Below are positions 3,324 to 31,040 of a stretch of 31,040 bases of DNA, one piece after another. The translations under genes and the position numbers were made by a program. This stretch comes from an uncultured Verrucomicrobiae bacterium. GTDB lineage: Bacteria > Verrucomicrobiota > Verrucomicrobiia > Limisphaerales > JAFGQR01. The first letter of the stretch is position 1; every line of letters starts with the position of its first letter. The notes below the pieces were generated by a model. The model was not told the DNA's origin. It worked only from the letters and a program-made list of their open reading frames with translations, and did no database searches. The stretch is from contig CAWBHS010000044.1 of assembly GCA_963788655.1 (NCBI GenBank), forward strand, positions 1 to 31,040, written 5' to 3'.

Positions 3324-4082
<759 letters not shown>

Positions 4083-4658: not shown

Positions 4659-6625
<1,967 letters not shown>

Positions 6626-6683
6626 AACGTCTTCAGTTGATTGACGAAAAGAACCTGAACCAAACGGAAGGGAAGAATGCCAC

Positions 6684-6800
6684 CGTCCCTTCGCCAGCAT
6701 TATCTGGAGCAGGTTCAATGGGTCTTCTGCGGACCAAGCGCAGAACTCTCAGCCTTTGTCCCGCCAACACGGCGCGGGGACAGGTCGGCTCCCCAGTTAC
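6684..6800 (-). promoter_or_regulatory. TPP riboswitch
   Basis: Minus strand GGGGAGCC...GGCTGAGA...ACCCATTGAACCTGCTCCAGATAATGCTGGCGAAGGGA, about 60 nt upstream of the thiC ATG. Confidence 0.95.
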
Positions 6801-6908
6801 GGAAGAACCATGCGACGCGGGTCGGAGCGTGTCAAGCCAATGCCAGGGCGGTTTGGAACTCGGCAGGCCGCGTCCTTTCAGGTACTTGAGTCCAAAATCC
6901 TTGAAGCC

Positions 6909-7200
6909 TTCGCGAAGATAAGCGCGCACCTTGTCCCACTGCTGATCAAGGGTCGCGGTGGGAGCGGGAAGTTGTTTGATCTTCAGCGTGGCAATGCCCG
7001 GGCGGGACTCGGTCTTGATCTCCTCGATGGATTTCGGTTCGCTGATCTTGCGTTCGAGCGCGCGATGGGTCGCGACGAGCGCTCGCTGGCGGTGCGGGAC
7101 GCCCGCCTGCGGGAACGCCAGAAGCAGGTGGGCGAGAGCGCGGGAGCCATCAAGCTGCGCCAGAGCGGAGCCATGAGCCAGGATGTCCGGATGGCAACCC
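6909..7200 (-). pseudogene. Probable remnant of an RND (AcrB-family) permease N-terminal region
   Basis: Frame without a start reads PHRQRALVATHRALERKISEPKSIEEIKTESRPGIATLKIKQLP...LDQQWDKVRAYLRE, resembling the AcrB PN1 segment. Recognised by eye only. Confidence 0.4.
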
Positions 7201-9312: not shown

Positions 9313-9439
9313 CGCGGCTGGGGGCTTGGAGTCCCGCCTTCAGGCGGCACGGCGCTCGAACTGTTGGAAGGTGACAGGACCACAATCGCATGGCGGAATG
9401 GCAGTTTCGCCCTTCCGTCGCCAAATCCGTTGCTGATTC

Positions 9440-9627
9440 AGCCGTGACTATTCAATAGCTGGAACCGCGATGAGGCGATTCGGCGTGGTAGGACAGCCGT
9501 CTCGCCTGTCTCCAATAGCCCCAAGGCATCCTCGCTTTTTAGTGACCTGGAGGCGTTACGGTACAAGTCGATGGTTTGCAATCGTTCGAGACAGGCGGGA
9601 CGCCTATCCTACTGAATAGTCACGGCT
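9440..9627. mobile_element. MITE/REPIN-like element, copy 1
   Basis: Perfect 15-bp terminal inverted repeat AGCCGTGACTATTCA...TGAATAGTCACGGCT enclosing an inverted GTAGGA REP pair. Confidence 0.8.
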
Positions 9628-9634
9628 ATGCAGC

Positions 9635-12131: not shown

Positions 12132-12169
12132 GATCTTCAACACCCCATGCGTTAAGGGATGCAACGCTT

Positions 12170-12365
12170 AGCCGTGACCATTCAGTAGGACCGGCGTCCC
12201 GCCGGTCCCGAACGAGTGCAAACCAACAACTTGGATCACGGCGCCGCGAGTATTTCTATGTCACCAAACGGTGAGGATGCCTTGGGCTATTCGAGACAGG
12301 CGAGACGCCTGTCCTACCACGCCGAACTGCCCCATCACCGCACCAGCCACTGAATTGGTACGGTT
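12170..12365. mobile_element. MITE/REPIN-like element, copy 2 (inverted, diverged)
   Basis: Aligns along its length with the reverse complement of 9440..9627 (agccgtgac.attcagtagga..., gaggatgccttggg, gagacaggcgagacg.ctgtcctaccacgccgaa). Confidence 0.8.
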
Positions 12366-12421
12366 GAGTGACGAATTGAATGCCGGCTGTCGCAGAAGAA
12401 GCGCCTTGCCCCTGATCTGCC

Positions 12422-15392: not shown

Positions 15393-16182
15393 ATGCTCGC
15401 TCGACGCGTTATACCTTGCCTCGATGTGCATGCCGGCCAGGTCACCCGCGGCGTGCAATTCGGCAAATTTGAAGAAGGCGGCCTGCGCAATGTAGGCGAT
15501 CCCGTCGAATTGGCGCTCCGGTACAACGACCAGGGCGCCGACGAAATGGTTTTCTTCGATATCACCGCGCACGCCCAGGGCCGGCAGAGCATGGTCGATG
15601 TCATTCATCGCGCCGCCGACCAATGCTTCATGCCGCTGACCGTCGGCGGTGGCATTCGTACGGCCGACGACATGCAAACCATGCTGCGCGCCGGCGCCGA
15701 CAAAGTGAGCATCAATTCCGCCGCGCTCGCCCATCCCGACCTGATCCGCGAAGGCTCGGAGAAATTCGGCAGCCAGTGCATCGTGGTGTCCATCGACGCC
15801 AAGAAAGTGGCGTCCGATCGCTGGGAAGTATTCTCGCACGGTGGCCGCAAATCCACCGGGATGGGATGCCATCGAATGGGCGCAGCGGGCGGTGTCGCTG
15901 GGAGCCGGCGAGATCGTGCTCAACAGCATTGACGCCGACGGCACCAAGGCGGGCTACGATGTGGTCATCACCCGGCGCATCAGCGAAACGGTGGGCGTGC
16001 CAGTGGTCGCCAGCGGTGGGGCGGGCCAACTCGAACATCTGGCTGAGGTGCTGCTCGAGGGCAAAGCGGATGCGGTTCTGGCCGCCAGCATTTTTCATTT
16101 CGGCGAATACACGGTGGCGGACGTGAAGCGCTTCCTGGCTTCCAAGAATATTCCCGTCCGCCTCGAACCCCAGCCGGCATAG
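15393..16182 (+). CDS. hisF: Imidazole glycerol phosphate synthase cyclase subunit, frameshift near 15862
   Basis: [33 protein letters not shown] and [11 protein letters not shown], then [23 protein letters not shown] and LAASIFH. Confidence 0.95.
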
Positions 16183-23451: not shown

Positions 23452-23557
23452 GGGCGTGTTGTAGAAGAAAAGCGCCGTGAATCCAACGGGAAAAACCAAC
23501 TCAGCGCAAGGAAACTGGCGATGGGGGATTCCGGCTGAACTGGTGACCGACCGGAAC

Positions 23558-24020: not shown

Positions 24021-24127
24021 ACCGAACATCGATGAGCTCAGACACCCGGCTGGAGTCGTCCGAAAGAAAGAGACTTTTCAGATTTCATTGAGCGACGGTC
24101 CGGGTTGTCTGTAGCGCCTGGTTGAAC
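24021..24127 (-). other. attC site whose R'' end was replaced by the inserted element
   Basis: Minus strand GTTCAAC-caggc-GCTaCAGACAaCCCGG...CCGGGTGTCTGAGC-tcatcgat-GTTCGGT, with extra bases in the R''-proximal arm. Confidence 0.8.
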
Positions 24128-24222
24128 AAAGCCGCTGCGCGGCGAAGGTGGTCGGACGCGGTTGAGCTTGGCGGCAAATTATCGGTCAGCGACATGGCTG
24201 GAATCTATCATGCTGGCGGGGC

Positions 24223-25233
24223 ATGAAAACTAAAAAACATGCCGCGAATGGCAACCCCACCAAAACCAACCTCAACCCCAACCTCCCCGCCATCCGCACG
24301 ACCGGGCGCGAGTATGTCAACCCGGTCGATTACCAGCATCCCTACCCGTGCCTGGCCCGCTTCGCCGACGTGCTGGCCCTGCGCTATGACGCCAATCGCA
24401 CCCGGCACGCCTATTACCGGCAGGTGCGCCTGATCCACGAGCATTTCGGCGCCGACCCCAGCATGCTCACCGAGGACCAACTGCGCGACTATTTCCTGAT
24501 GGTCAAGCTCCAGAAGCACTGGCAGCCCAAGTCCATCCGCCAGGCCCTGGCCGCGGCGCGCCTGTTCTTTGTCGAGCACCTGGCGCATCCCGACTGGCAG
24601 GTCTTTGCCCGGATCCGCGCCAAGGATCATGACCGCTTGCCCGCGGTGCTCACCCGCCCGCAAGTCCACGATCTGCTGACCTTCATCCGCCTGCGCCGCT
24701 ATCGCACGCCCATCAAACTCATCTATGTCTGCGGCTTGCGCTTGAGCGAATGTCTGGGCCTGACGATTCACGCTGTTCACGGCCGGGAAAACAAGTTGCG
24801 GATTCGCCGCGGCAAGGGCCAGCGGGATCGGATGCTGCCGTTGCCCACGTCCCTCTATCAGGAGCTGCGGGCCTATTGGGCGTTCCACCGCCATCCCCTG
24901 TTGCTCTTTCCCAATGTCGGCCGCGGGGCGCACACGCCCCAGGCGCTGGCCGCGCGCATGCACGCCGCCACCGGTCCCATGCCGCCCTCCTCGTTGCAGC
25001 GGCTATTGATTCTGGCCCGCAAGCAATTGAACATCCCCGCCGCCTCGCTGCATTCCTTACGCCATAGTTTTGCCACCCACTTGCTCGAGGCGGGCGCCCA
25101 CCGGCCCACCATTCAACGGTTGCTGGGGCACAAGCAGATCACCTCGACGATGATCTACCTGCACTTGACCCACCAGAGCGCCCAGGACGCCTGGCAGCTC
25201 ATGGCCGCGCTGTGCCGCGGGCTGCCGCGGTAG
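24223..25233 (+). CDS. Site-specific tyrosine recombinase (XerD/IntI-related, IS91-associated)
   Basis: [46 protein letters not shown]: full catalytic set. Confidence 0.93.
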
Positions 25234-25258
25234 GTCGGCTACCTCCGCGTCCGCTCGC

Positions 25259-26404
25259 GTGAGCGCCACCGTCATCGGGGCGCTGCGTCGGTTCCTGCCC
25301 GCGTTCCTGGAAACCCATCCGCCGCTTTCGGAGGAACAACGCCGCGCCCTCTGGGCCTTCACCCATTGCCGCACGCCGGCGTTGGGCGGGCAGGCTTTTG
25401 CCTGCGAAGACAAAGCCTGCGGCCGCGTTCACTTCGCCTGGCATTCCTGCAATCACAAAGCCTGTCCGCAGTGTGGCCGGCAAGCCACCGCCCGATGGGT
25501 CCAGCGCGAATTGGCCCAGCTCGTGCGCGCTCCCTACTTCCTGGTCACCTTCACGCTCCCGGCCGAACTGCGCGGGCAGTTCTTCGGGCCCCACGCCCGC
25601 CAGGCTTACGACCTCTTCTTCCACGCCGTCTCCGGCGCCTTGCGGGAAAAGTTGGCCGCCGACAAAAACCTGGGCGCCCACCGCAGCGGCTTCACCGCCG
25701 TCTTGCATACCTGGACCCAGCGCCTGGAGTTTCATCCGCACCTCCACTGCCTGGTGCCCGGCGCGGGGCTGGATGCCGGCGGCCACTTCGTCCGCGGCAA
25801 GAACGAGGATCGCCTGGTGTTCCTGGGGCATTTGAAAGCCGCCTTCCGTCAGCACTGCTACCGGCGCTTCAAGGAAAACAACTGGCCCGTCGATCCGGCC
25901 GTCTGGTCCACGGAGTGGAATGTCCAAATCCAACCGGTCGGCGCGGGGGTTCCCGCCGTGAAATACCTCGGCACCTACGTGGCCCGCACGGCCATCCGCG
26001 ACGAACGCATCGTGGCGGTCGGGGACCAGACGGTGACCTTCCGGTGGAAGGATCGCGATCACGATCGCCTCGCACAGTTGACGTTGCCGGGCATCGAGTT
26101 CGTGCGCCGCTACCTGCGGCACGTCCTGCCGCGAGGCCTGCGCTCGGTCCGCTATTACGGGTTCTGTCATCCCACCGCCAAGGCCCAGCGTCTGCGCGTG
26201 CAGTGCCACAGTGGCTTGCCGGTGCAATTGGGCGATCCCACGGTGGCCCCTTCCTCCCGTTCCACTCCGCGCTGTCCCGGTGGCGGCGGGCCGACGCGCT
26301 TCCTCGCGTCGGTTGGCCGATGGGCACGGAAGCGCGGGCCCCCGCGGCAACCGCCACGCCACCCGATCCCACCGCGGTCGAGCGCCGCTGCCATCGCCGC
26401 ATGA
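25259..26404 (+). CDS. IS91-family (HUH Y2) transposase
   Basis: Zn-binding CRT..LGG...C...C...SCNHKACPQC, FLVTFTLP, HTW...HPHLH, YLGTY, HVLPRG...VRYYG. Confidence 0.93.
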   Translation: MSATVIGALRRFLPAFLETHPPLSEEQRRALWAFTHCRTPALGGQAFACEDKACGRVHFAWHSCNHKACPQCGRQATARWVQRELAQLVRAPYFLVTFTLPAELRGQFFGPHARQAYDLFFHAVSGALREKLAADKNLGAHRSGFTAVLHTWTQRLEFHPHLHCLVPGAGLDAGGHFVRGKNEDRLVFLGHLKAAFRQHCYRRFKENNWPVDPAVWSTEWNVQIQPVGAGVPAVKYLGTYVARTAIRDERIVAVGDQTVTFRWKDRDHDRLAQLTLPGIEFVRRYLRHVLPRGLRSVRYYGFCHPTAKAQRLRVQCHSGLPVQLGDPTVAPSSRSTPRCPGGGGPTRFLASVGRWARKRGPPRQPPRHPIPPRSSAAAIAA

Positions 26405-26680
26405 ATACCGCGCCTCAAAACAATCCGAGGTTCCGCGGGCGGGAAGCGCTTGCGGCGCGTGAGCCTCTCGGCGCTCGGAATCGTGGAAACCTCTCCTCCA
26501 AGCCACCTTTTCTGGCCTCCGCCTTCAGTAAACCACCCTCACTTCCCGCTCGGCCTACTTCCCCGCTCCGCTTGGGGTCCCGCGCCGTCATCAAAAGCGC
26601 CTCTCCGACCCATCGAGTGACTCCTTCGGCTCAAATACAAGTGCCATAGGCTCTGGCGAACCGCCGCGTCGTTCGGGCTT

Positions 26681-26746
26681 GTTCAACCAGGGGTGTAGTT
26701 GCTGGCTCCGCTTCGCTCCGCAGCAATACACCCTTTATTGTTGGGC
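26681..26746 (+). other. attC-like hairpin carried by the element, polarity opposite to the array
   Basis: GTTCAAC-ca-GGGTGTAgTTGCTG-loop-CAGCAATACACCC-tttatt-GTTGGGC. The extra base is in the left arm on the plus strand. Confidence 0.7.
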
Positions 26747-27026: not shown

Positions 27027-27119
27027 GCCCAACGACAGAGGTCAGGCACGGCGCGCCCGAGATGCCCGACATGAAACGAGAGCGCTCCCGCGCCGTTGCC
27101 TGCACCGGCTTTGTTAGGG
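27027..27119 (-). other. attC site
   Basis: Minus strand CCCTAAC-aaagcc-GGTgCAGGCAaCGGCGCG...CGCGCCGTGCCTGACC-tctgtc-GTTGGGC, with two extrahelical bases. The upstream gene's stop lies inside R''. Confidence 0.88.
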
Positions 27120-27494: not shown

Positions 27495-29704
27495 ACCGGG
27501 TAGGCGTCATTGGTTACCCGCCGACGCCCCCCTAAGAACCGTACGTGAAAGTTTCCCTTCATACGGCTCAAGCCTTTCAAAGGCCGTCGTTGATCCGGAC
27601 GACCCAGCTATCAGAGTTTTGGCCATAATAACAAGCCTTTCGAGAGCCGATTATACGCCCCCGGTCGCCCGAGGCGAGCCGTTTCCTACGGGGTAACTGC
27701 GCCAGGCAAAGCACCGACGCTTCTCGAAATACTTGACCCAGTCCGGATGATAAGGATTGGCCTCGGCTTTCACTTTAATGTGCCGATCCATCACCGTCTG
27801 GAGCAGATTCCGCAGCTTCAACAATCGCGGCTCGCCGTCTCGGGTGCGAACCCAAGTCGAAAAGCAGCCTTTGCCAGCGGCGGGATAATATTTGCGGCGT
27901 CGCCAAGTCCAGGATTTCTTGGGATGCCGCCGTTTCATCCATCGCCAGAGCAGGTCGTTCACGTACCGATCAACCTGATAGAATGCTTCTCGGGCGACGA
28001 CATGGCGGTGGTAGTTGGCCCACCCCCGCAGGATTGGATTTAACGTTCGGATTAACACTTCGGTCGCCAGACCCCGACCTTGCCGAATGCACTGTCGGGC
28101 TTTCTCCCGTATCCCGGCAATCGCCTTGCGGGAGGGAGTGATCCGAAGTTTCTTTCCCCGTTTGCGCAGGTTCTGTCCCAGGAAGTCAAAACCTTCCTCG
28201 ATATGGGTGATCTTGGTCTTTTCCTCTGAGAGACTCAGGCCCCGTTCCTTCAGGAAGGAGGCGATCACCGGTTTGACCTTGTCTTCGAGGGTTTCCCGAC
28301 GTGCCGCCGTGACCACAAAGTCATCCGCATAGCGGATGAAGTTGACCTTGTCATGGCGCGGTCGGATCGCCGCCCGGATGGCGACTTCCAACCCATCGAG
28401 GGTCAGGTTGGCCAACAAAGGGGAGGCGATGCCCCCTTGCGGTGCTCCCGCTTCGGTCGGAAAGAGCCGACCTGCTTCCAGATAACCGGCGCGCAGCCAT
28501 TTGCTCAGGATCTCGCGATCCATCGGGATGTGCTGGAGCAACCAGTCGTGGCTGATTTCGTCGAAACAGCTTTTAGTATCCCCTTCCAGAACCCAGACCG
28601 GCGCGTAGCTCTTGGCCAGTGCGTTGAAGCACTGCCCAATGGCATCGGCGCAACTACGGCCTTCCCGGAAACCATAGGAGTTCTTGTCAGCGCAAGTCTC
28701 CGCAATCGGTTTCAAAGCCAAGGCATGGAGGGCTTGATGGGCGCGGTCAGTCATCACCGGAATACTGAGCGGCCTTAATTTGCCGTTCTTTTTCGGGATG
28801 TAGAGACGCCTCAGGGGTTGCGGTTGATAGCCGCGTTGTTTGAGGCGCGATACCGCTGCGAACTTTTGTGAATCGGTTCGCCAGACCTGTCCATCGACTC
28901 CGGGCGTGGCGTGTCCTTTGTTACTCGTCACCCGTTGAACGGCCAGTAATTTGGCCGCGCCCGAGTGCGTGAGAATCCACTGCAGGGCTTTTGCCCGGCC
29001 GGGGTCGTTTTCTCTGACCGCCTTGGCAATACGCATCTGCAGCCGTTTGACCGAGGCGCGCACGGATTCCCAGTTCAGGGCTTTCCATGCGGTGCCGCGA
29101 CCGGAGGACGCACCAGTCGATCCCGAAAGATCAACCGTCATTTGCTTCTCCCCCTGCATCGGTTCTACCTATTCTCTTGCCAAGAAAGACCCGATCGAAG
29201 TGGGTCTATCCGATCCATTACAGACCGGTTTTTACTTTTTCGATCCTCTCAAAGCTGCTTCCCCTGAGCCGGCCTTGCGGTGGGCTTGCCTGGAAACCGT
29301 CCAGGCGGGATACCCGCAGCTTTTCCATGTTCCGCATTCATCACGAGATGGGTTAGGTCCACTCTCTACACCGGCGGTGCGCCATTCGCGTCGGGCCACG
29401 TTAGACAACCCGAACCTGACCGCTGGCCTTATTTTGGCCGGAGCCTTAAAAACAGCCTCGTCTGGCTCGTTCCTCTGACGATGCTTGCGAGTGTTCAATT
29501 GGTTTGACCCTACCATCCAATTCTAGCGCCGCACCCGGATTGAGGCTCCCAGGCTGGCTACATTGTCGGGAAGGCTTCACACCCTGGACAGTAGCCTTGC
29601 GGCCGCCCGCCCAACGCATGCTTCCCTGGAATACCTGCCGCGAAAGGCAGGACTGAGTCAGGTTGCCCATGCTCAGCAGTGATGAATGCGACTTCATGTC
29701 ACAA
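27495..29704 (-). mobile_element. Group II intron (IIB/CL-like), inserted at attC core GTTAG|GCGC
   Basis: Domain V GAGCCGTATGAAGGGAAACTTTCACGTACGGTTC (27536-27569), domain VI ending CTACCCGGT, 5' end TTGTGAC. Excision gives GTTAGGCGCAT, one mismatch from the complement of the cassette's R'' region. Ends are +/-1-2 nt. Confidence 0.88.
27651..29159 (-). CDS. ltrA: Group II intron reverse transcriptase/maturase, no HNH domain
   Basis: RVT_N-type start (W..LNW...VKRLQMRIAKA), TPGVDG, RPLSIP, SYGFR, PQGGIASPLLAN, RYADDF, GFDFLG, LNPILRGWANY. Confidence 0.95.
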   Translation of the reverse strand: MQGEKQMTVDLSGSTGASSGRGTAWKALNWESVRASVKRLQMRIAKAVRENDPGRAKALQWILTHSGAAKLLAVQRVTSNKGHATPGVDGQVWRTDSQKFAAVSRLKQRGYQPQPLRRLYIPKKNGKLRPLSIPVMTDRAHQALHALALKPIAETCADKNSYGFREGRSCADAIGQCFNALAKSYAPVWVLEGDTKSCFDEISHDWLLQHIPMDREILSKWLRAGYLEAGRLFPTEAGAPQGGIASPLLANLTLDGLEVAIRAAIRPRHDKVNFIRYADDFVVTAARRETLEDKVKPVIASFLKERGLSLSEEKTKITHIEEGFDFLGQNLRKRGKKLRITPSRKAIAGIREKARQCIRQGRGLATEVLIRTLNPILRGWANYHRHVVAREAFYQVDRYVNDLLWRWMKRRHPKKSWTWRRRKYYPAAGKGCFSTWVRTRDGEPRLLKLRNLLQTVMDRHIKVKAEANPYHPDWVKYFEKRRCFAWRSYPVGNGSPRATGGV

Positions 29705-29807
29705 CTAACGACCAAGCTGAGCGACTGACATGAGCGCGCCGACGACATCCGATTGCAACGAAGACGCCGCCCGCGCTCATGGCAGTTCGCTCAGCGTCTG
29801 GTTGGAC
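29705..29807 (-). other. attC site (R' core interrupted by the intron)
   Basis: Minus strand GTCCAAC-cagac-GCTGAGCGAaCTGcCATGAGCGCG...CGCGCTCATGtCAGTCGCTCAGC-ttggtc-GTTAG|intron. Confidence 0.88.
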
Positions 29808-30268: not shown

Positions 30269-31040
30269 TTACTTCAATTCCGCCAAGGCCTCCCGCAGCT
30301 TGGTTTCGATGAGTTTCTGCCGCTTCGCCTCCAGTATTTTCCGGCCGTCGTTGGCCGTGACGTAGAAAGTGTCCACGGCGGCGCCTTTTTCGGTGAGGAT
30401 TTTGGCCAGGGAAATGTTGATCTCAATTCCGCCAGCGCCCGGGAGATGCGGAACAGCAGACCCAGGTGGTCTTCGGTTTCGATTTCGATCACGGTTTGGG
30501 TGGCGGACGCCGTGTTGTCAATCTGGATGGTGGTGGGCAGTTCCTCCCCGGCCAAGCCAAAGTAGAGGGGGCGCCCGGGGCGTTTTCCTTGGATGAGCCG
30601 CTCCAGGTTGAAGTCTTCGTCCGTCAACGCCGCGGTGAGCAGCCGCCCAAATTCCTGGCGCTCGTCCACGGTCACGAGGCTGCCGGTGCGGGCATCCGCC
30701 ACGGAGAAGGTGTCCAGGACGACTTTATCGGTGCGCGTAAAGACTTCGGCGCCGAGGATGTTGATGCCGGCGGCACTGAAGGCGCAGGTGATCTGGCTGA
30801 ACAGGCCGGCGCGATCCCAGGTGCAGATTTTGGCCTTGGAATAGCCGCGGTCCCGTTGGTGGTGCCAGGTGATCACCGGTTCGAGCCCCCGTTTGCCGTC
30901 CGCCAATTGCCGGCGCATGAATCGCCGCACTTGGAGGAGATCCTTGGCAATGTCTTTCACACTGTGGACGGTGAAATGGCGGGAAGGTCGCTGGAAATGG
31001 CCGGCAATTTCCTCCGGCGTGACCCGCCGCTTCACGGTCC
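30269..31040 (-). CDS. glnD: [Protein-PII] uridylyltransferase, C-terminal ACT domains (5'-partial, frameshift near 30425)
   Basis: ICTWDRAGLFSQI...INILGAEVFTR.D..LDTF, TVIEIETEDHLGLLFRIS, then ISLAKILTEKGAAVDTFYVT. Confidence 0.88.

Follow-up and report, generated by a model that had tools for sequence, protein, structure and literature searches.

A two-gene IS91-family element inserted in the R'' box of an integron attC site in an uncultured Verrucomicrobiae bacterium

Organization of the element and its insertion site

We describe a 2619 bp mobile element in a 31,040-nucleotide stretch of DNA from an uncultured Verrucomicrobiae bacterium (GenBank assembly GCA_963788655.1, contig CAWBHS010000044.1, positions 1–31,040 of the forward strand; hereafter the window). 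The element contains a tyrosine recombinase gene (rec) followed by an IS91-family transposase gene (tnpA), and it interrupts an attC-like site of an integron cassette array; the insertion is in the R'' box, and rec and tnpA run antisense to the cassettes. The features of the element and of the array are listed below; R1 is a covariance model of attC-like sites described in a later section, and ORF denotes an open reading frame.

24021–24121, minus strand: body of the interrupted host attC, reading C of R'', spacer, L'', loop, L', spacer and R' GTTCGGT (24027–24021)
24122–26740, plus strand: whole mobile element, TTGAAC...TTTATTG, 2619 bp, junctions read directly
24122–24143, plus strand: left end, terIS-like, (TT)GAAC-AAA followed by the 5-bp hairpin GCCGC-TGC-GCGGC (24131–24143)
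24223–25233, plus strand: tyrosine recombinase gene of the Xer/IntI group, 336 amino acids, ORF intact
25259–26404, plus strand: IS91-family Y2-HUH transposase gene, 381 amino acids, GTG start, ORF intact
26678–26687, plus strand: inner box CTTGTTCAAC, in which GTTCAAC (26681–26687) is an R''-like core and an inverted repeat of the left end
26691–26740, plus strand: right-end hairpin with spacer TTTATTG (26734–26740), oriIS-like by position and supported by covariation
26741–26746, minus strand: first six bases of the host R'', GCCCAA, severed from the remaining attC and complementary to GTTGGGC (27033–27027)
27027–27112, minus strand: neighbouring attC-like site, intact, the top R1 match (77.7 bits, E = 3.3e-16; not a training row)
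29703–29801, minus strand: third attC-like site of the array (R1 29.4 bits, E = 2.4e-4; a heuristic scan agrees)

The left junction reads GCGCCTGG|TTGAACAAAGCC (ending CCTGG|TTGAAC), with G at 24121 and TT at 24122–24123, and the right junction CACCCTTTATTG|TTGGGCGAAC (TTTATTG|TTGGGC), with G at 26740. GTTG is common to both junctions in the window copy and GTT only across its relatives, with no further duplication. The right-end hairpin proper (26691–26733) has 13 bp and a single bulged base, G26698, and when the element is circularised its ends are laid out like an attC site: RYYYAAC, spacer, bulged stem, spacer, G|TTRRRY. Removal of the element in silico restores a site that reads, on the minus strand, GCCCAA|C, a spacer, a stem-loop that has one more base in its 5' arm than in its return arm, a second spacer and GTTCGGT, and the restored R'' GCCCAAC is the exact complement of GTTGGGC (27033–27027) at the start of that cassette. 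The interrupted attC body scores 41.9 bits with R1 (as a training row), its 5' stem arm carrying the extra base.

A preliminary description of this DNA, made from the sequence without database searches, had proposed most of this, and the re-read junctions give the same coordinates for a 2619-bp element that starts at G|TTGAAC and ends in GTTCAAC-hairpin-G|TT; the one adjustment is that the inner GTTCAAC (26681–26687) lies slightly to the left of the place it implied. Its claims that excision rebuilds a host attC whose R'' matches GTTGGGC, that the circularised ends form an attC-like site with the complementary cores GTTCAAC/GTTGAAC, and that there is no target duplication beyond GTT are likewise borne out, the last also by two uninterrupted paralogous sites described below.

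Three attC-like sites at cassette spacing, all on the minus strand, make up the host array (at least two attC sites in a single orientation being taken as an array), and no intI was found among the scanned window ORFs; the array is thus a cluster of attC sites lacking an integron integrase (CALIN) as far as the window extends. The extra base in an attC stem marks the R''-L'' side, and the cassette ORFs run on the strand carrying this extra-base arm. Therefore the top strand of the array is the minus strand of the window, and the element lies in R'' and not in R', the box in which IntI has its crossover. A strict scan for RYYYAAC...GTTRRRY cores with at most one mismatch between them gave no sites in the intact window; it is too stringent because the R' in an array is that of the next cassette.

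Encoded proteins

The tnpA product scores 304.3 bits against NF033538 (cut-off 125) and matches the Pfam families Y2_Tnp (PF04986; 1.2e-41) and Zn_Tnp_IS91 (PF14319; 1.3e-23); it contains HPHLH and YLGTY, which we take to be the transposase motifs. No relative was found by sequence among the solved structures of the PDB. Several features place the element in the IS91 family: a Y2-HUH enzyme with a zinc-binding N-terminus, the lack of a target-site duplication, with only GTT common at the junctions, and two unlike ends, one terIS-like and upstream of tnpA, the other hairpin-bearing and downstream. The tetranucleotide GTTC/CTTG (T at position 2) that flanks oriIS in the family is absent, and the bottom-strand flank reads G[C/G]C[T/G/C]-AAC, which is the R'' box.

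The recombinase matches Phage_integrase (PF00589; 5.1e-27) and SAM_4 (PF13495; 2.2e-9). R173, K198, H277, R280, H303 and Y312 are invariant in an alignment of 22 sequences (A1) and in a second one (A2) that includes three true integron integrases, to which it is 29–31% identical. Among solved structures the family profile best matches IntI4 (2a3v; 121 bits), followed by a XerC-like protein (92.6 bits) and XerD (80.2 bits). An integron integrase gene would lie beside attI and divergent from the array, and this gene lies inside a mobile element within an attC. As judged by profile scores, the recombinase is an Xer/IntI-group enzyme and not an integron integrase; an unrooted tree of the recombinase, IntI and Xer clades has one topology only and cannot show a sister relation. 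The structure predicted from 22 close sequences (mean predicted local distance difference test score 55.6) was too poor for a fold search.

Related elements and their targets

A single scan of a species-representative genome collection gave 77 loci (numbered here with the prefix L), nearly all titled as Verrucomicrobiota metagenome-assembled genomes. At least 4745 recombinase matches at E ≤ 0.001 were found among 8000 candidates scored; the best 120 have identities of 69% or more, and many are on 2.5–3 kb contigs, as a repeated element would give. The transposase gene directly follows the recombinase gene in 68 of the 77 loci, the remaining nine (L027, L041, L049, L061, L063, L069, L072, L074 and L077) being degraded or cut by a contig end. 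In these loci and the window the same ends recur (57 right and 68 left ends), and because of this recurrence we regard them as more than chance; they bound 41 complete copies of 2402–2902 bp. The left end is nearly invariant in about 60 loci and the inner box is invariant or has one mismatch in 57 right ends, and both are found as well in the gammaproteobacterial relatives L078, L079 and L080 described below. In one left flank (L033) the base before TT is A instead of G, so that the base 5' of TT is target-derived, placing the cut 5' of C on the bottom strand. The left end also has the layout of the left end of an IS91 copy (L082; CGAG-TA-hairpin), and in IS91 the terIS is upstream of tnpA (PMC13181058).

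The host sequences flanking these ends differ and their pattern is kept. Left of TTGAAC the sequences are no longer alike, and what they retain, read on the other strand, is C, a spacer of 5–9 nucleotides, a stem-loop with an extra base in its first arm, another spacer and GTT[A/G/C]. The right flanks all start with TT, followed by A, C or G (never T), then G (43/53), G or C (45/53) and C (43/53), a consensus corresponding on the other strand to GCCTAA, GCCGAA or GCCCAA and hence to the R'' box. The right-end finder required TT, and a BLAST-anchored list gave the same flank consensus. Seven of the 65 rows of the right-end list were dropped as false, being longer than 110 nucleotides or in coding sequence (L009, L037 minus strand, L040:5312, L045:4246, L045 minus strand and two on the L048 minus strand).

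An arm test for the succession spacer, arm, loop, arm, spacer and GTT is positive in 42 of the 63 testable left flanks and in 24 of 1000 control GTT sites taken at random from the same loci, and the extra base is in the R''-side arm of 41 of the 42. A flank test based on minimum free energy (MFE) gave 31/63 and 19/400 controls. Twenty-six of the flanks align and fold into 14 pairs, all 14 of which show compensatory changes. The covariance model R1, built from this alignment without R'' and used at E ≤ 0.1, identifies 118 attC-like sites in 423,405 bases from 57 sources, and every one of the 118 is on the strand opposite to rec and tnpA. These sites occur at cassette spacing on both sides of the elements, with 15 in L017 alone. 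An MFE-based scanner had found the true sites together with many GC-rich false ones, and was superseded by the arm test and R1.

An R1 match directly abuts 35 of 52 left ends (18 of them training rows, 17 not), and four more left ends adjoin another copy or a right-end-like hairpin; no R1 match lies beside the other 13 (L009, L016, L022, L023, L031, L044, L051, L058, L059a, L061, L072, L078 and L080). Uninterrupted paralogues of two targets, at L064 (2690–2786, for the L052 site) and L037 (2404–2494, for the L056 site), share 79–81% identity with them and are continuous across G|TT. Genuine intI genes (290–390 bits; cut-off 265) are present in L005, L007, L051 and L065, in each case to the right of the element and on its own strand, that is, upstream of and divergent from the array, as in real integrons.

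The elements insert at R'' (the inverse core), at RYYYAA|C or 1–3 nucleotides to its 5' side, on the attC top strand; their genes are always antisense to the cassettes and there is no target duplication. We regard it as highly probable that they form a two-gene IS91 clade specific for the R'' box of attC. The arm test, R1, the flank consensus and the paralogues bear out the preliminary proposal of an attC- and orientation-specific family with G|TT joints at R'' flanks, and insertion at generic GAAC/CAAG tetranucleotides regardless of attC, which it had named as the contrary outcome, is not the pattern of this clade.

Two further observations concern the structure of the copies. Head-to-tail tandems joined as ...G|TTGAAC with nothing between them are present at L048 (2571–5132 and 5133 onward), L059 (204–2780 and 2781 onward) and L045 (574), one case being in a complete long-read chromosome; either rolling-circle read-through or a further insertion into the regenerated site could have produced them. 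At L041 (~5115–6994) the tnpA of an element copy is interrupted by a segment starting GTGTGCC that contains a 394-amino acid ORF (5794–6978) and is group II intron-like.

The terminal hairpin and the strand that folds

The junction of the circularised element folds on the minus strand into a 9-bp R stem and a 13-bp L stem (-23.2 kcal/mol, z = -3.6), and the integrated end with its host flank gives -12.7 kcal/mol (z = -0.3). The right-end hairpin covaries across the relatives: 91.4% of cells are paired compared with 78.2 ± 0.9 when shuffled (none of 500 shuffles as high), and changes on both sides are seen in 9 of 13 pairs, with slid controls at 36–50%. All 33 transition mismatches in the hairpin are A.C on the plus (gene) strand, corresponding to G.T on the minus strand, and none is of the opposite kind. 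G.T occurs solely on the bottom strand, which is therefore the strand under selection to fold.

In IS91 only bottom-strand single-stranded circles insert and double-stranded circles do not, according to the cited passages of PMC13181058. The bottom strand of the element is continuous with the host top strand, so that joining took place on the top strand of attC, on the 5' side of its hairpin. In chromosomal integrons the attC top strands are on the lagging-strand template and are expected to fold there (PMC11023631), a location that may offer a reason for the strict orientation. No reading of replication direction was obtained from the GC skew of the window.

Variants of the right end were also observed. 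An insertion of about 40 nucleotides is present in the hairpin loop, with stem and ends intact, at L006 (6461–6564), L008 (2895–2998), L013 (6507–6610) and L042 (2207–2308). Solo right-end hairpins occur within arrays at L010 (2540–2613), L070 (3740–3799), L026 (3366–3428) and L030 (3186–3247), some with R''- or R'-like boxes in place of the inner box of the element; they may be excision or deletion remnants, or cassettes with an attC of the same type.

Distant relatives

A tblastn search of plasmid records identifies distant rec and tnpA pairs, with recombinases 31–36% identical to that of the window, and the two genes have stayed together on plasmids from Gammaproteobacteria, Alphaproteobacteria and Clostridium (annotated pairs in Salinivibrio, Photobacterium, E. 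coli, Sinorhizobium and Clostridium plasmids). The E. coli example, on the IncC plasmid NZ_LT985243.1 (L079, 3307–5642), occupies a class 1 integron, where it runs antisense to the cassettes with aadA1 on one side and qacEdelta1 on the other; its two genes are annotated as complete and its recombinase is 33% identical. The left joint is GAACGAATTG|TTGAACGAAGCCGC and the right joint CTTGTTCAAC-hairpin-TTATTTG|TTAGAC, which puts the insertion precisely at GTCTAA|C, the inverse core that follows immediately on the aadA1 stop codon. With R1 the aadA1 attC beside the element reaches 43.3 bits and the attC after it 31.2 bits, so that the model recognises textbook attC sites. The 72,556 plasmid records contain a single full copy of this element and, on a plasmid of Shewanella sp. 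ANA-3, a 245-bp piece of its right end (94.7% identical); none was found in 5,426 complete E. coli genomes.

The Salinivibrio element (L078) shares these ends and is surrounded by small antisense ORFs, with a flank that is attC-like by eye and no adjacent R1 match, and the Photobacterium element (L080) has no attC-like flank by eye. The recombinase gene overlaps tnpA in L078, L079 and the Clostridium locus L083, as orf121 does in IS91. The Sinorhizobium (L081, 1470–4060) and Clostridium (L083, 1080–3710) plasmid loci contain the same gene pair with other ends, outside attC sites and integrons; each is a single copy, so the ends given are putative. Those of L081 are TTGGAC... and ...GCCCAAC-hairpin, again RYYYAAC/GTTRRRY-like, and it sits among GGCATAAT-type palindromic repeats. 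Because these two lie outside attC, the attC habit appears to belong to the clade with TTGAAC/GTTCAAC ends and not to all two-gene IS91 elements.

Proposed mechanism and alternatives

The window element is an intact member of a large two-gene IS91-family clade specialised on integron attC sites. For its insertion we tentatively favour, while holding it possible and not probable, a reading close to that of the preliminary description, in which the transposase makes a circle and the element's own recombinase makes the joint. The allocation of each catalytic step to an enzyme is what we infer here. The Y2-HUH transposase would peel off or copy the bottom strand to give a single-stranded circle, as in IS91. 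The joined circle ends would fold into an attC-like structure in which a spacer separates the R box (GTTCAAC/GTTGAAC) from a bulged L stem. The Xer/IntI-group recombinase would then bind this hairpin and exchange one strand with the folded host attC top strand at AA|C, the strand that IntI leaves unused and that would be exposed on the lagging-strand template, and insertion would be completed by replication. Recombination of the two hybrid sites with each other would be the reverse reaction and would release the element precisely. That HUH-made circles and a dedicated Xer-like recombinase constitute a second, integron-independent recombination system acting on attC top strands, which integron biology takes to be silent, is a further-reaching proposal that we think rather unlikely.

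The bottom-strand G.T bias of the hairpin and the tandem copies are consistent with a circle. A role for the recombinase at the site is suggested by its catalytic residues and the RYYYAAC/GTTRRRY pair, which are conserved across phyla, by the position of the joint within G|TT and by the target-derived base 5' of TT in L033. IntI has its crossover point at G|TT.

The part played by the recombinase, in place of the transposase, in making the joint is nevertheless the weakest link of the proposal, and several observations weigh against it. The best NCBIfam match of the recombinase is to the integron integrase model TIGR02249, at 149.5 bits in two stretches (cut-off 265), and with 129.2 bits for XerC (335), 125.6 for XerD (330) and 127 for XerA (220) it is below every curated cut-off. 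The IntI-specific segment, which reads extrahelical bases, is absent, the corresponding region having about 63 residues compared with about 83 in IntI (alignment A2). In the gammaproteobacterial, rhizobial and Clostridium relatives the top recombinase model is XerA or XerD, with IntI close behind, and relatives in hosts and sites that lack attC have the same kind of recombinase; its IntI likeness is therefore a family trait and not a match to the target. The earlier designation as an IntI-related recombinase accordingly holds at the level of the Xer/IntI group and no closer. The bulge of the element hairpin is in the 3' arm of the exchanged strand and that of the host top-strand hairpins in the 5' arm, and it is not obvious that one recombinase would read both geometries alike. 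Finally, the classical IS91 transposase inserts its circle without a recombinase, and the left end, GAAC with a hairpin, resembles the terIS of IS801 and IS1294 (GTTC on the bottom strand; PMC13181058 for both points) and fits an HUH cut.

These last points lead to the strongest alternative, in which the transposase acts alone, nicking oriIS and terIS (GTTC| on the bottom strand), making the bottom-strand circle and inserting it. It would choose the attC top strand, RYYY|AAC-spacer-hairpin, for its likeness to its own oriIS with the flanking tetranucleotide, and the recombinase would be employed otherwise, for example in multimer resolution, in excision or in end-recognition control like that of Orf121 in IS91. 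IS91 TnpA inserts bottom-strand circles unaided, with termination and insertion modulated by an overlapping ORF that lies upstream (PMC13181058); the rec-tnpA overlap in L078, L079 and L083 recalls this arrangement, the left end has the terIS layout, and the head-to-tail tandems (L048, L059, L045) are as rolling-circle read-through would yield. The RYYY of R'' also resembles the family targets GTTC/GTCC, but the flank G[C/G]C[T/G/C] before AAC lacks the position-2 T that is kept in all IS91 targets. Moreover, a 7-mer is insufficient for the association with attC, so the transposase would need to read the hairpin too, and action by the transposase alone leaves no task for a catalytically intact recombinase and for a perfect RYYYAAC/GTTRRRY pair around a bulged stem kept across phyla. 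On balance we consider this alternative a serious one, somewhat on the doubtful side. Neither it nor joining by the recombinase accounts for the fact that the host bottom strand is never used: that strand has the same 5'-RYYYAAC-spacer-hairpin layout, with a bulge geometry nearer to that of the element itself.

It is highly improbable that the element is an ordinary cassette with two mobility enzymes, moved by a host integron integrase. Read in its own orientation it does start with TTRRRY and end in an attC-like site with an extra base on the R'' side, but the canonical bottom-by-bottom IntI reaction would lead to insertion at R', with the element oriented like the cassettes. The insertions are at R'' and all 118 attC-like sites are on the opposite strand; R1, built without R'', has no match on the right end of the window element at E ≤ 0.1, and the scanned window ORFs include no intI.

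That there is no target specificity at all, the attC-like flanks being part of a longer element or the product of generic GAAC/CAAG targeting and sampling bias, is less credible still: BLAST similarity does continue about 20 nucleotides beyond the left junction in many loci, 13 of 34 non-training left ends adjoin no R1 match, copy or right-end-like hairpin, and L080 and L009 lack an attC-like flank, but the flanks differ in sequence while keeping their pairs (compensatory changes in 14/14), attC-like sites lie on both sides at cassette spacing, uninterrupted sites of the same family exist (e.g. window 27027–27112) and the target in L079 is the textbook aadA1 attC.

Other features of the array and window

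The window is ordinary chromosome with about 60% G+C, and includes thiC, ABC-2 transporter genes and thioredoxin-reductase-like genes. A sugar-nucleotide operon ends at 23499 and a glnD-like gene with an ACT domain starts at 30274; between them lie the element, a group II intron and small ORFs on the minus strand that have no Pfam match.

The group II intron extends on the minus strand from 27495 to about 29702, with Rfam matches to domains V/VI and D1–D4 and a reverse transcriptase/maturase ORF (27651–29159; TIGR04416, 364 bits). It probably begins with GTGAC at 29702, immediately after the R' GTTAGTT (29709–29703) of the attC-like site at 29703–29801. With this candidate end the intron would be sense-oriented and 3' of the top-strand hairpin, whereas described IIC-attC introns are antisense, in R'' and on the bottom strand.

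Elsewhere in the window, a copy of the 3' part of thiC lies beside the full gene (3324–3914 and 4659–6143), with repeats of 54–205 nucleotides at 92–98% identity. Inverted repeats of about 85 nucleotides (80–82% identity), each internally palindromic, at 9438–9631 and 12166–12367 enclose 2.5 kb with DUF3568 and thioredoxin-reductase-like genes, and may be a repeated intergenic element. A hisF-like gene at 15393–16126 is apparently split into overlapping frames (15393–15932 and 15623–16126), with Pfam coverage of profile positions 1–147 of 228 only, and may reflect a frameshift or a sequencing error.

Significance

To our knowledge, integron arrays are regarded as protected cassette stores moved by IntI alone, and only two kinds of attC parasite have been described, the IS1111-attC elements and the group IIC-attC introns. 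The clade described here would be a third kind, and an abundant one, in which two unrelated enzymes that break DNA are combined and the attC strand and box targeted are those not used by IntI. Such elements provide a handle on the role of the integrase ORF in two-gene IS91 elements and on the biological accessibility of folded attC top strands. If our reading is correct, every insertion makes two hybrid attC-like sites, one of the host R'' with the element hairpin and the other of the element GTTCAAC with the host attC body, and the elements could both reshape arrays and be shuffled by IntI, in clinical class 1 integrons included. The member in a class 1 resistance integron on the E. coli IncC plasmid makes the family relevant to array rearrangement there, though it is rare in that setting. 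The preliminary suggestion that such an element might supply recombinase to an array that has lost intI finds no support: the element uses a box and strand that IntI does not, and four of the related loci have an intI of their own.

Comparison with known systems

In the full-text literature we found no IS91-type element described as attC-targeting or cassette-mimicking; ISfinder and subscription journals were outside this scope, and an earlier description is possible. One of the nearest statements concerns ISCR28 beside sul4, where attC sites were called at the end of an IS91-like element ('data not shown' there; PMC12772301). Its authors read this as passive shuffling and, in the cited passages, describe no recombinase partner; our comparison is by description only.

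The element shares with IS91, IS801 and IS1294 a Y2-HUH transposase with an N-terminal zinc domain, two unlike ends and the lack of a target duplication. As in that family, a tetranucleotide and hairpin lie to the left of and upstream of the genes, a subterminal palindrome lies downstream, and the bottom strand is the folded or active one (PMC13181058). It differs in targeting a structured attC box and not a bare GTTC/CTTG, in the position of the inverted-repeat copy at the right end, which is internal and precedes an attC-like hairpin instead of being at the tip, and in also having a catalytic tyrosine recombinase; identity between its transposase and that of IS91 is only about 26%.

Two-gene members of the IS91 family (presumably ISWz1 and ISShvi3 in ISfinder) carry an integrase ORF, and the pairing of an integrase with an IS91 transposase as a unit is common to them and the element. 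In the literature on two-gene IS91 elements we found no statement of attC targeting, of strand or box choice, or of cassette mimicry.

Group IIC-attC introns resemble the element in that they use the R'' of attC, are antisense to the cassettes and recognise the attC hairpin, and their site, TTGT/T, is one base from the joint of the element (PMC7923331). They are, however, retroelements that reverse-splice into the bottom strand 3' of the hairpin (PMC7923331), whereas the element is DNA and enters the top strand 5' of the hairpin. The IS1111-attC elements are also insertion sequences specialised on attC (PMC9229058), but have an RNA-guided DEDD transposase, with no HUH enzyme, tyrosine recombinase or attC-like end.

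Like the element, integron cassettes have RYYYAAC...G|TTRRRY cores with a bulged stem, fold on the bottom strand and are joined within G|TT. Unlike them, the element lies at R'' and is inverted, has spacers of 6 and 3 nucleotides and brings its own enzymes, and its recombinase, unlike IntI, has no IntI domain and scores below the cut-off. The nearest precedent for the proposed reaction is the XerCD-dependent integration of folded single-stranded CTX phage DNA, in which a Xer-type recombinase likewise exchanges one strand between folded single-stranded DNA and the chromosome and replication finishes the insertion; there, however, the recombinase is encoded by the host, the target is dif and no HUH enzyme takes part.

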